From a virus (lineage: Duplodnaviria > Heunggongvirae > Uroviricota > Caudoviricetes), in the IMG/VR virus record IMGVR_UViG_2645727991_000008: a DNA stretch of 12,523 bases; one strand, written 5' to 3'. Shown here one piece after another: positions 1-3,000 of the stretch. Position 1 is the stretch's first letter. Every line of letters begins with the position of its first letter. The position numbers were made by a program.

Positions 1-3000
1 CGTCACGCCATTTCCTGTTGGATCATGTAAATGACACTCAGGTTACAAAACCGGCCAGAATAATCGGCGCCAGGCGGACTGAGTTATTGTCGTTTCATAC
101 ACTTCTGCTCTCATTGCTGGTTTGCGCTTGCATTGCAAGACCACTCGTGAAGGGGTTGGCCTGTGTAGCTTGTCGGAGCTGATCGCCTCCTGACTTTGCA
201 GATTTGCGCGACGAGCTCTACGGCGAGAAGCTGCGGTGCCTTTAAATTCTGTTTTTCTGGACATGGATTCCTCCCGAATAAACTTTGGCGATGCAATCTC
301 GAAGCTCCTCCTGAGACGGTTGCTTCGGCATTGCATCCCACAGCTTATGTGGTTGGGTGATCTGGCTTTTCAGCCACGTAGTCGAGAGTCGACGTTGTTT
401 AAAGAGCCTGCCAGTCTGTTCCATTTGGCTTCCAGCGTCCTGCTGACGGTTAAATAGTACGATATGTACTTTACAAGGTCAATACAATTTGTTGTAAGTT
501 GGCGTGGTTTTTTATAACGCTTTGTATTTAATAGTGTTGTTTTTTTAGCGTGGATGTATTGTCTCGGCGATGTAAGGAGAGATCAGAATTGCGTGGTTTA
601 GTGGGTTGCATCTATTTATTTTTCAATAAATATAATTGGTTATGTGTTTTTAGGTGGGCGAACGTGAGGCAAAGAAAACCCGGCGCTGAGGCCGGGTTGT
701 ATTATGCTGCAAGTCTCTTAATCCAAGTCTCTCTTTTGGAGAATGGTAGAACTTGGCTTGATTCATGGAAGAGTAAGGAGAGTTGTTGCATTTGATCACC
801 AATTGCTTCGCTGTCTATAACAACAAATCTGTTGTTATACTCCTCACTTGAAGCTTTAAGATCAATTAGTTTCCCAAGCAATGAGTAAGCACTATTCCAG
901 CTTCCTCCGTGTTTCACGCTTGATGTAAAAACGTATTTAGGTATGTCGGTTTTTATTGTTACAGGGACGGTAATTTGATGTCCACTCAAGCCATATACGT
1001 TTTCACGAAGAGAAAGTGCGTCTCTAAGCTCTGTGTGATATAGATAATCAATAACCATACTTTCAAACTTTTCAGCTTGAACTGGCTGATACCAGTCTAA
1101 CGACAAAGTTGATGCGAGTATACCAGCTCTAATTATGTTCGATGTAATCGCACCGACATCCTTTTCTGTTGCCCAAGCAATGATTTCTCCTCGAGCATTG
1201 AGTTCTGCGCCTTCTTTAAGCAGTAATTGTCGTATCTCATCAAGTCGTTTTTTGGTAAGCGAGATCCCTCTTGCCTCCATATTCATTAAGGCATCGCATC
1301 TGTCACTAACTAAATACCTACCATTGACTTCACGGATAAAGGCACCGACATGCTCTCCATCATCACAGTAAGTGAATGGACTGATAATTCTCAAGGTCTT
1401 GCCTATTGGATGGCATTCGAAACCTAGTTGTGAGATCACTGTTGAGCACATCATATTCCAAACCCCATTTGCCCCGACTCATCTTCAAGCGGTAAAGGTA
1501 TTCTCCCAGAGTAAGTTATGTTCAGATGTTTACAGAAGTAATTCCAATACCCTACCAGGTCATCTGGGTTTATGTCATCTTCGATTGGAAACGCTATTCT
1601 ATCACTATAGTATCCAGCTTCTTCATAGTATACATGGTAGTGAGCACCGTAAATGATATCTTGGTACTTCGGATGATCGACCTTGTAACTATTCGTGTGT
1701 TTGTCAAAGTGATAGGTATCTACCGCGAAAACCCTCTTGTTATGATAGAAAGCAATAATATTTATTTTAGGGTAAGAAATCGGGTCATCAGGTTCTGAAT
1801 CCTGATCTGGTTTCCATTTCAGTTCAAACTTTAGCCCTTGTATAGGTATACAATCCTCATCCAAGGGGATGATATGAGCTTGTAGCCACATATCAGAGCG
1901 ACTTGGTTTCTGTTTCCATTTAACGCCAGAAAAGTTAACTATTTTTTTACAATAAAGTACTTTATCAACTTCTACTTGGCTTGGCTGATAATCATCTATT
2001 TTTGCCAATGTTTACCGCCCTGTAAATTGTAGATAAAAGTGGTTTCATCACCCAAACGTCTCTTCAGGCCATTGGCTGGCGATAACTTTCCCCACAACGG
2101 AACAACTCTCATTGCATGGGATCATTGGGTATTGTGGGTTTAGTGGCTGTAGAAACACCTGACCGCTATCCCTGATCAGTTTCTTGAAGGTAAATTCATC
2201 ACCACCAAGTCTGGCTATGCAGAAATCGCCGGGCTCAACAGCTTGCTCAGGGTCAACCAGAATTAACATCCCGTCAGGAAAGCTGGGTTTGGAACCTGTT
2301 GGTGCGGTCATTGAGTTACCTTCAACCTCAAGCCAGAATGCAGAGTCACTGGCTTTTTTGGTTGTGCTTACCAATCTCTCCGCATCGCCTTTGGTAAAGG
2401 TTCTGAGTTCTGGAGAGAACATCCCAGCCTGAACATGAGAAAAAACAGGGTACTCATATTGTTTTTTAACTGGGGCCGATGAGTATTCGCCAACAGGTGA
2501 AAATGTCCCGTCGTGGTTGAATGATATGTTATCAATACCAAGGTATTTAAACACCACACCAATATCACTAAGAGATGGATGACGAGATCCGCGCAACCAG
2601 TGTCCAATCCCACCCTGCGTCATACCTAGCTCTTCGGCTAACTTCTCTTGAGTTATGCCGAGCTCTTTCATTCTGGATCTAGCCAGTTCATACCATTTCA
2701 TTTTCATGTCCTTATTATTACGCTTTGTACTGGAACCATCCATGCACAATGTGTATTTTTACTTGTATTCTTAAAGTACATATTGTATTTTTATTCGTGT
2801 TTACTATGGAGGGCATATGAGCAACCTACGAAAATATCGAGAGTCACTGAATATCTCTCAAACAACACTTGCTAAGGCAGTTGGATGCACACAGGGAGCT
2901 ATCGGACATTGGGAATCTGGTCGTCGCTTCCCAGACCTTAAAACATGCCGTGCTCTTGTTGCATGCCTAAACAAGTTAGGCGCAAAAGTCAGTCTTGATG

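Follow-up and report, generated by a model that had tools for sequence, protein, structure and literature searches.

The closest described relatives of the system treated here are the N proteins and nut sites of lambdoid phages. The N protein of phage P22, gp24, is the founding member of the Pfam family N_peptide, and the boxB RNA of this phage has a structure solved by nuclear magnetic resonance (1A4T). In phage H-19B, the nutR site has two hairpins and N protects the loop of boxB; when the C-terminal domain of this N is removed, the protein overcomes Rho at the adjacent terminator tR1 and fails at distal and hairpin terminators (PMC3526286). The authors of the epsilon34 genome predicted a "novel BoxB specificity" from the N-terminus of its N protein (PMC2629481). 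Here we describe an N/nut system of this kind in a stretch of 12,523 nucleotides (nt) from a virus of the class Caudoviricetes (IMG/VR record IMGVR_UViG_2645727991_000008). The whole stretch is hereafter called the window, and strands are given as (+) and (-). It carries the two nut sites, nutL and nutR, and an N gene that is interrupted by an insertion sequence (IS), ISEc10, after codon 55.

We hold with high confidence that the window represents the immunity and early-regulatory region of a lambdoid Escherichia coli prophage with the N/nut type of phages VT2-Sakai, Nil2 and ev207, and that its N gene has been broken by ISEc10. Positions 100-3500 are 99.6% identical to phages ev207 and ev017 and approximately 96% identical to many Stx2 phages, and prophages of complete E. 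coli genomes match the right-hand 5 kb at 99.7% identity. The same prophage with an intact N of 90 amino acids (aa) is found in E. coli OkiPb01716, where sieB and ral come next and the N gene product is named "transcriptional antitermination N peptide" by PGAP.

The initial annotation of this DNA, made from the sequence alone, had proposed that the leftward and rightward leaders share an identical boxB core with a boxA-like sequence upstream of each, and that they belong to an N-type circuit with an N protein unlike that of lambda. All of this is borne out at the level of architecture. The window contains exactly two copies of the core GCTGAAAAGC, one at 365-374(-) and one at 3077-3086(+), against 0.05 expected by chance, and two or more copies were obtained in none of 200 shuffles. 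Each core lies within a boxB hairpin (Table 1), and the only difference between the nutL and nutR hairpins is a compensatory swap of G:C to C:G in the stem. Folded in isolation, the boxB of nutL has a free energy of -7.1 kcal/mol (z -3.6) and that of nutR -6.5 kcal/mol (z -2.1). The consensus of boxA, as it is generally given and as it appears in the P22 record, is about CGCUCUUUA. A boxA-like sequence stands 5' of boxB at both sites of the window (GCTCTTTAAACAA and CGCTCTTTGTAACAA), with the heptamer GCTCTTT at 401-407(-) and 3044-3050(+); the one in nutL may be compared with the nutL boxA of P22, which reads CGCTCTTTAAC in its record. At both sites the elements follow one another in the order boxA, spacer hairpin, UACG and boxB, on the strand transcribed from pL or pR.

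The position of the two sites is likewise that of an N-nut system, with one nut before N on the pL transcript and the other after cro on the pR transcript, both in sense. nutL, 363-407(-), lies approximately 40-85 nt downstream of a pL-like promoter and upstream of N, which is the first gene after this promoter, and nutR, 3043-3088(+), lies between cro and cII. The nutL/nutR pair (359-381 versus 3070-3092) forms the longest inverted repeat across the immunity region; together with the operator/promoter pair, in which the pL-like promoter overlaps an operator-like sequence common to the pR region (453-473 versus 2772-2792, 86% complementary), it makes up the two best inverted repeats flanking cI and cro.

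Further evidence comes from the comparison of related loci. A search for related loci by means of the N alignment yielded nothing but copies of at least 98% identity, and the diversity described below was therefore taken from two pattern scans, one for boxB with a tetraloop and one for boxB with the loop GACAA, in which nothing was fixed except CTACG, the three inner pairs of the stem and the loop. Stem pairs were counted by script because MAFFT, when given tetraloop and pentaloop nut sites together, misaligned the 3' side of the stem. The nut layout is kept in about 240 related loci. The two outer boxB stem pairs, which were left free in the scans, are complementary in 155 of 169 sites matching the tetraloop pattern, where approximately 14% would be expected by chance, and in every one of the 120 tetraloop sites that have nut context. 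Five outer-pair combinations recur (UC/GA, UG/CA, CG/CG, AG/CU and UA/UA), so that the stem is kept by compensatory change around a GNRA-like loop, GAAA or GCAA. In about 80 IMG/VR loci with the N of the window, boxB is invariant, variation is seen 5' of boxA and in the spacer-hairpin loop, and nutR is found behind at least three different cro ends. Shigella phage 75/02, BP-4795, epsilon34 and Salmonella phage 103203_sal5 keep the order of spacer hairpin, UACG and boxB; among the relatives there are three unrelated spacer stems (GTCGA/TCGAC, GGAC/GTCC and GATTC/GAATC) and several boxB outer pairs, and the nutR spacer hairpin is identical in VT2-Sakai, BP-4795 and epsilon34. The same N/nut module is seen in VT2-Sakai, epsilon34, BP-4795 and P22 relatives. 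As a separate observation, the nutL of 103203_sal5 (locus L007, approximately 4380-4420) forms a hairpin GCUC-CGUCAAC-GAGC despite an N of H-19B type and a nutR with GACAA(G); this odd boxB variant can be interpreted as a loop of GUCAA with a closing C-C mismatch, like the P22 nutR CCGC-CGACAAC-GCGG.

The folding of the leaders as a whole gives a less simple picture, and several points here weigh against the nut assignment. In leaders folded over 61-65 nt or over 193 nt, boxA and the 3' half of boxB are paired in the minimum free energy fold, and in the longer leaders this fold is about 2 kcal/mol better than the separate hairpins. The z-scores of the 61-65-nt leaders, -1.2 and -1.3, are not significant, and the GCTCTTT heptamer is not rarer in the window than chance would have it (three found, 2.15 expected). 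Folding of both leaders had been proposed at the outset as a check, and its outcome is divided: the boxB hairpins are stable on their own, and the optimal fold of the longer leaders joins boxA to boxB. With leader folds that favor this pairing and z-scores that are not significant, folding energy alone neither proves nor refutes boxB. In the alternative fold itself, at 355-415(-) and 3036-3100(+), GCUCUUU pairs with AAAAGC and encloses the spacer hairpin; it could be an alternative regulatory structure of the nut RNA or a mere by-product of sequence complementarity.

These results would also suit the view that the two hairpins are chance palindromes, DNA-binding sites or terminators rather than RNA signals, since the folds in larger context are not significantly more stable than those of shuffled sequences, and an Rfam scan of the whole window gave no family match and hence no curated nut or boxB model. 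We nevertheless consider this view extremely improbable. Both sites read G-A-A-A in the sense of transcription within the same order of boxA, spacer, UACG and boxB, neither hairpin is followed by a T-run, across about 240 loci the stems covary and the class of the loop is strictly linked to the arginine-rich motif of N, and the 14-mer of the nutR boxB is identical to the one annotated as "putative NutR - boxB" in the epsilon34 record. It is the comparative evidence, rather than the thermodynamics, that decides the nut structure as we read it, and judged by this evidence the two matching hairpins are the genuine nutL and nutR of a common lambda-like E. coli prophage of the VT2-Sakai type.

The protein partner of these sites is encoded by an open reading frame (ORF) of 73 aa, 43-264(-), for which an arginine-rich N-terminus had rightly been noted. 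Against the Pfam family N_peptide (PF25694) its product scores 54.8 bits (cutoff 27.9; E = 1.5e-14), and no other Pfam family is found at E<=1, so that the assignment to N stands the Pfam check. The arginine-rich motif, RRRARRANLQ, follows FxG near the N-terminus as in the family (MSRKTEFKGTAASRRRARRANLQ). The match, however, covers only profile positions 5-70 of 100. Intact relatives, namely P22 gp24, H-19B-type N, epsilon34 gp43 and the N of ev207, cover profile positions 5-100, and positions 71-100 have no counterpart in the 73-aa product. Residues 1-55 are identical to the 90-aa N of VT2-Sakai, from which ev207 differs at residue 47; after residue 55 the product is unrelated to the N of either phage. 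The C-terminal tail CLPNVALYAAGYRKSKQLTAR is absent and is replaced by 18 IS-encoded residues. The sequence lost is ITLTTLTRKYEGSTCLPNVALYAAGYRKSKQLTAR, and its last 21 residues are common to the H-19B-type N and largely also to P22 gp24. Every related N ends in a conserved tail, LPxVALYAAGxRKS..TAR. By analogy with the N proteins of H-19B and lambda, the LPxVALYAAGxRKSxQxTAR tail is taken to be the region that binds RNA polymerase. Because the tail is missing, the gene is a disrupted member of the N_peptide family rather than a complete one. At E<=1 Pfam revealed no similarity of the window N to lambda N or Nun, the sequences of PDB chains contained no match to the 90-aa N, and NCBIfam gave none for N or the adjoining ORFs.

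The start codon of the 73-aa ORF is the right one. An upstream start at ATG 336, which would give 97 aa here and is the one annotated in VT2-Sakai and 1717 (114 aa), was rejected. The ATG at 264 was preferred because of its strong Shine-Dalgarno sequence, the 90-aa call by PGAP and the alignment of all other N-termini; those of the H-19B-type and epsilon34 N proteins align there.

The cause of the truncation lies at the left end of the window. Window position 1 to 101-107 is 97-99% identical to annotated ISEc10 ends in 541 E. coli genomes with unrelated flanks, and the phage and E. coli matches to the N side all end at 100/101; the junction itself is ambiguous by 2-4 nt (99-103). As codons 56-73 are read from the end of the IS, the 73-aa product is a chimera of N and IS. 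An exact-protein lookup found this chimera encoded on eight contigs from several draft assemblies and one metagenome, which indicates that the allele is real and shared by a lineage; GCA_039603515.1 is one carrier. All eight contigs break inside the IS, and for this reason the far side of the allele cannot be seen. The junction, taken as an exact 35-mer, was not found in GTDB species representatives or IMG/VR, and window 1-700 is contiguous in no complete E. coli genome.

It had been remarked that 73 aa is short for N, and that the gene might be a compact N variant or a mis-assigned gene. The remark holds insofar as the native form of 90 aa is itself shorter than the 127-aa N of H-19B type, but the figure of 73 aa reflects the interruption. 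Neither explanation offered for it is upheld. The idea of a genuine, naturally compact and fully functional N can point to the strong Shine-Dalgarno sequence, the intact arginine-rich motif, the shortness of the native family member and the recurrence of the allele in several assemblies, and yet it is very improbable in our judgment: it is the end of ISEc10 that codes for residues 56-73, the tail conserved in every related N is gone, the lengths common among N proteins of the tetraloop class are 90 and 120 aa, and H-19B N fails at distal terminators once its C-terminal domain is removed (PMC3526286). Disruption of N by an IS is ordinary prophage decay.

In the circuit as we picture it, each transcript, from pL as from pR, carries a nut site in which boxA is followed by a small spacer hairpin, by UACG and by a boxB with GAAA loop. 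In the intact relatives, by analogy with the N proteins of P22, H-19B and lambda, the 90-aa N would bind boxB through its arginine-rich motif, would recruit Nus factors through boxA and the spacer, and through its C-terminal tail would make RNA polymerase resistant to tR1 and later terminators. The product of the window retains the RNA-binding end, has 18 junk residues added and is without the C-terminal tail. Since it is missing more than the H-19B deletion removed, loss of processive antitermination is to be expected, and the window copy has probably lost normal antitermination. The insertion of ISEc10 in N would also be a polar disruption of the pL operon, and the prophage would be unable to run its own early-to-late cascade. 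Since nutL and nutR are both intact, the element could still be acted on by a same-class N from a co-resident prophage.

Three points count against this account of the damage. What is said of RNA binding, of Nus dependence and of the C-terminus is drawn from relatives with 38-42% identity; the window contains neither the second end of the IS nor the 3' part of N, so that a deletion adjacent to the IS is indistinguishable from a simple insertion; and the truncated protein may retain some activity locally, at nutR/tR1. The last point can be developed into an explanation of its own, in which the truncated N retains a partial or altered function, either as a local block to Rho at nutR/tR1 that allows some expression of cII, O and P, or as a dominant-negative protein that occupies the same-class boxB of incoming phages in a Nun-like exclusion. 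The arginine-rich motif and the next 30 or so residues are intact behind a good ribosome-binding site, C-terminal deletions of H-19B and lambda N retain anti-Rho activity near nut (PMC3526286), and the allele persists in several isolates. On the other hand, expression from pL would be repressed in a lysogen, 35 residues are missing here against the 27 removed in the H-19B experiments, the chimera has neither similarity to Nun nor any sign of selection, and clonal descent explains its persistence equally well. We therefore regard partial function as unlikely, though far less so than a complete compact N, and prefer the reading of a decayed gene.

Comparison of the related loci also uncovered an association between the loop of boxB and the N protein encoded behind it. 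A nutL with tetraloop (GAAA or GCAA) always precedes an N with the motif RRR[AE][RQH]R[ASL]x[LVM]Q, that is, of RRRxRRAxLQ type (33 distinct N-termini), and a nutL with GACAA always precedes the H-19B-type motif RRRERLKAKALANG (six distinct N-termini, about 82 sites). No exception was met among the N-like ORFs of the pattern-scan loci, and the size of the loop, 4 or 5 nt, tracks the motif class of N across about 160 loci. At position 20, N proteins of the tetraloop class have A, S or L, and those of the H-19B-type class have K. In a MAFFT alignment, position 20 of the tetraloop class falls on Arg24 of P22 gp24, a residue in contact with the looped-out C of the P22 loop, and only this P22 correspondence is read from the alignment, the H-19B-type motif being offset there by two residues. 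The GACAA loop of P22 adopts a GNRA-like fold in which the C is looped out, and it contacts a His and an Arg of the peptide (PMC12550061); the boxB loop of the window equals the P22 loop minus this C, which is a canonical GNRA tetraloop. Whether boxB with GAAA or GCAA and the RRRxRRAxLQ motif constitute a distinct N specificity class, orthogonal to the class of GACAA with H-19B- or P22-type N, is in our estimate an evenly balanced question on the sequence comparison. The tetraloop class is common in prophages of E. coli and Salmonella, Stx2 phages included. Our literature search found no experimental study of a tetraloop N/boxB pair, and the class is known by annotation and homology, not by experiment. 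The association of loop class and motif offers a clean, naturally occurring case in which to test how GNRA folds are read by arginine-rich peptides.

The pattern scans also met with nut-like arrays in satellites that resemble phage-inducible chromosomal islands (PICI). In one locus (L143, 1500-1860), both loop classes occur on one strand, in the region between int and alpA of a PICI-like satellite. These satellites adjoin proA and tRNA-Thr and encode a P4-type integrase, AlpA and a P4-family primase. The island of E. coli CP131_Sichuan (L333, 6992-7642; NZ_CP053720.1) shows an integrase gene, an array of approximately 320 nt, a strong terminator-like hairpin at 7520-7556 and alpA (Pfam Phage_AlpA, 7e-20), followed by genes for an antirepressor, an Icd-like product and a P4-family primase. 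Its array includes a tetraloop nut (boxA, spacer hairpin, UACG and CAGCU-GAAA-AGCUG), two GCGCU-GACAA-AGCGC sites, one with a nutL spacer of H-19B type, and a lambda boxB, GCCCU-GAAAA-AGGGC, and the boxA-like sequence TGCTCTTTAACA is repeated between the elements. Satellite arrays hold also a boxB variant, GCCCU-GGAGA-AGGGC. Variant islands carry different sets of boxB; L336 and L337 (1501-1928), for instance, differ at one site, GAAA versus GACAA. The combined P22-type and lambda-type boxB pattern was present in three IMG/VR contigs and in none of the species representatives. The helper phages lambda, phi80 and Kapi1 are known to switch on alpA transcription (PMC6092414, PMC11773190); the phage factor responsible was still "under study" in 2018 (PMC6092414), and the inducer is not named in either paper. 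In the literature that we searched there was no link of PICIs or alpA to nut, boxB or antitermination, and such a link may be published elsewhere. The arrays suggest that N proteins of helper phages may induce alpA by antitermination of its leader. If this is true, helper N proteins would be the long-sought inducers of PICI-like islands.

Table 1. Location of the nut sites, the interrupted N gene and other features in the window
Feature	Position	Strand	Remarks
Terminal part of ISEc10 (IS21 family)	1..101	minus	approximately 101 nt
istA start codon, GTG	6-4	minus	reads off the left edge of the window
Chimeric truncated N ORF, 73 aa	43..264	minus	codons 1-55 (264-100) from N; codons 56-73 (99-46) from the IS
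Stop codon of the 73-aa ORF	45-43	minus	
Shine-Dalgarno sequence, GGGAGG	270..275	minus	5 nt upstream of the N ATG at 264
Long stem-loop in the N leader	286..340	minus	between nutL and the N ribosome-binding site
nutL boxB, UGGCU-GAAA-AGCCA	363..376	minus	14 nt, 5-bp stem, GNRA tetraloop
nutL spacer hairpin, GUCGA-CUC-UCGAC	381..393	minus	followed by UACG; -4.9 kcal/mol
nutL boxA-like sequence, GCUCUUUAAACAA	395..407	minus	
pL-like promoter, TTGACC, 17-nt spacer, TACTAT	454..482	minus	from promoter scan
Terminator-like hairpin	677-698	minus	
Two overlapping ORFs between cI and pL	702-1454 and 1451-2008	minus	
cI-type repressor	2048..2749	minus	Pfam HTH_3 and Peptidase_S24 domains
Inferred pR, TTGTAT, 17-nt spacer, TATTTT	2763..2791	plus	with operator-like sequence
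cro-type repressor gene	2817..3032	plus	Pfam HTH_3; annotated cro in relatives
nutR boxA-like sequence, CGCUCUUUGUAACAA	3043..3057	plus	
nutR spacer hairpin, GGAC-AUUC-GUCC	3059..3070	plus	followed by UACG; -5.2 kcal/mol
nutR boxB, UCGCU-GAAA-AGCGA	3075..3088	plus	14 nt, 5-bp stem, GNRA tetraloop
tR1-like hairpin	3111..3139	plus	followed by CCUUUC; between nutR and cII
cII gene	3174..3470	plus	Pfam Phage_CII, 7e-34; first gene needing read-through of tR1
Genes right of cII, in order			O, P, 96-aa ORF (ren position), NinB, NinF, NinG, phosphatase
Genes after the phosphatase, in order			LpxR (minus), Q, membrane-protein ORF, DUF1737/SASA esterase gene

The pR promoter was not called by the promoter scan and is placed by its mirror relation to pL. 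The long stem-loop of the N leader (-27 kcal/mol, z = -3.1) is present also in the fold of the whole leader, and by its position it may be likened to the RNase III-sensitive stem of the lambda N leader. The tR1-like hairpin (-9.6 kcal/mol, z = -4.4) was not called by the terminator scan because its T-run is weak, and the equivalent hairpin of epsilon34 is annotated as putative tR1. Leftward terminators are situated beyond the IS. A 60-aa ORF at 242-424(-), carried as a "hypothetical protein" in OkiPb01716 (RefSeq WP_000438342.1), covers the boxA and boxB of nutL and the leader stem and overlaps the start of N; this ORF was most likely called in error across a structured leader RNA. For annotators the correction is that N be recorded as a disrupted gene and that the 60-aa ORF over nutL not be listed as a gene.

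Beyond the control region, the window contains several genes of separate interest. The two overlapping ORFs between cI and pL are located where lambda has rexAB. A DUF1828 domain is found in one of them and a weak match to DUF6978 in the other, and they match both proteins of PDC-M24, a candidate defence system in PADLOC (B, 6e-10; A, 5e-4). Judged by these matches they are probably a defence module expressed in the lysogen. The 96-aa ORF in the ren position is without a Pfam match. Between the phosphatase of the nin region and Q lies a gene for a lipid A deacylase of the LpxR family, 7730-8692(-) (Pfam, 4.5e-40), which is moron-like cargo on the strand opposite to its neighbors; the annotation of relatives places a fragment of an antitermination gene directly upstream of it. 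At the right end, a NanS-p-like carbohydrate esterase gene with DUF1737 and SASA domains, 11327-12523(+), corresponds to a protein of 616 aa in OkiPb01716. Compared with that strain, a 1-nt deletion in a G-run near 11931 causes a frameshift that ends the ORF at 209 aa; either the prophage has decayed at a second place, or the homopolymer was misread in sequencing.

Set beside the known systems, the locus of the window stands nearest to the VT2-Sakai type, which includes Nil2, Stx2-1717, 2851, YYZ-2008, ev207 and ev017. Their nutL does not differ from that of the window and their nutR hardly does, and the order is the same, with pL, nutL and N on one side and cro, nutR, a tR1-like hairpin and cII on the other; they encode a complete 90-aa N, whereas that of the window is cut by ISEc10 after codon 55. 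The nearest system studied by experiment is that of H-19B; H-19B, 933W and BP-4795 share with the window the Pfam family, the two-hairpin nut layout, the UACG linker and the nutR spacer hairpin. The C-terminal 21 residues of their N match the full-length 90-aa N of VT2-Sakai and ev207. They differ in the GACAA pentaloop, against GAAA in the window, and in the arginine-rich motif, and their 127-aa N has a central segment of approximately 37 aa that is absent from the 90-aa type, with overall identity of about 41%. The C-terminal tail of P22 gp24 is 79% identical to that of the 90-aa N of the relatives, and the inner stem of P22 boxB, GCU/AGC, is the same as in the window, although the nut sites of P22 are without a spacer hairpin. 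In epsilon34, the nutL tetraloop CGGCU-GAAA-AGCCG and the motif RRRERRAALQ are of the same class as in the window; its gp43 is a mosaic N of 120 aa with an H-19B-like central region, and its nutL has no evident boxA. Lambda shares the logic, the gene positions, and a boxA followed by a 5-bp boxB stem closed by U-A under a G...A loop, but its boxB is a pentaloop (GAAAA or GAAGA), its nut sites lack the spacer hairpin, and no similarity of its N to the window N was detected in Pfam or in sequence. Nun of HK022 is likewise a small protein that binds boxB with an N-terminal arginine-rich motif; it arrests transcription instead of preventing termination, and no sequence similarity to the window N was found. 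The N/nut circuit of the window is already known in kind: its nut sites are those of a phage sequenced in 1999, and its gene is widely annotated as N.

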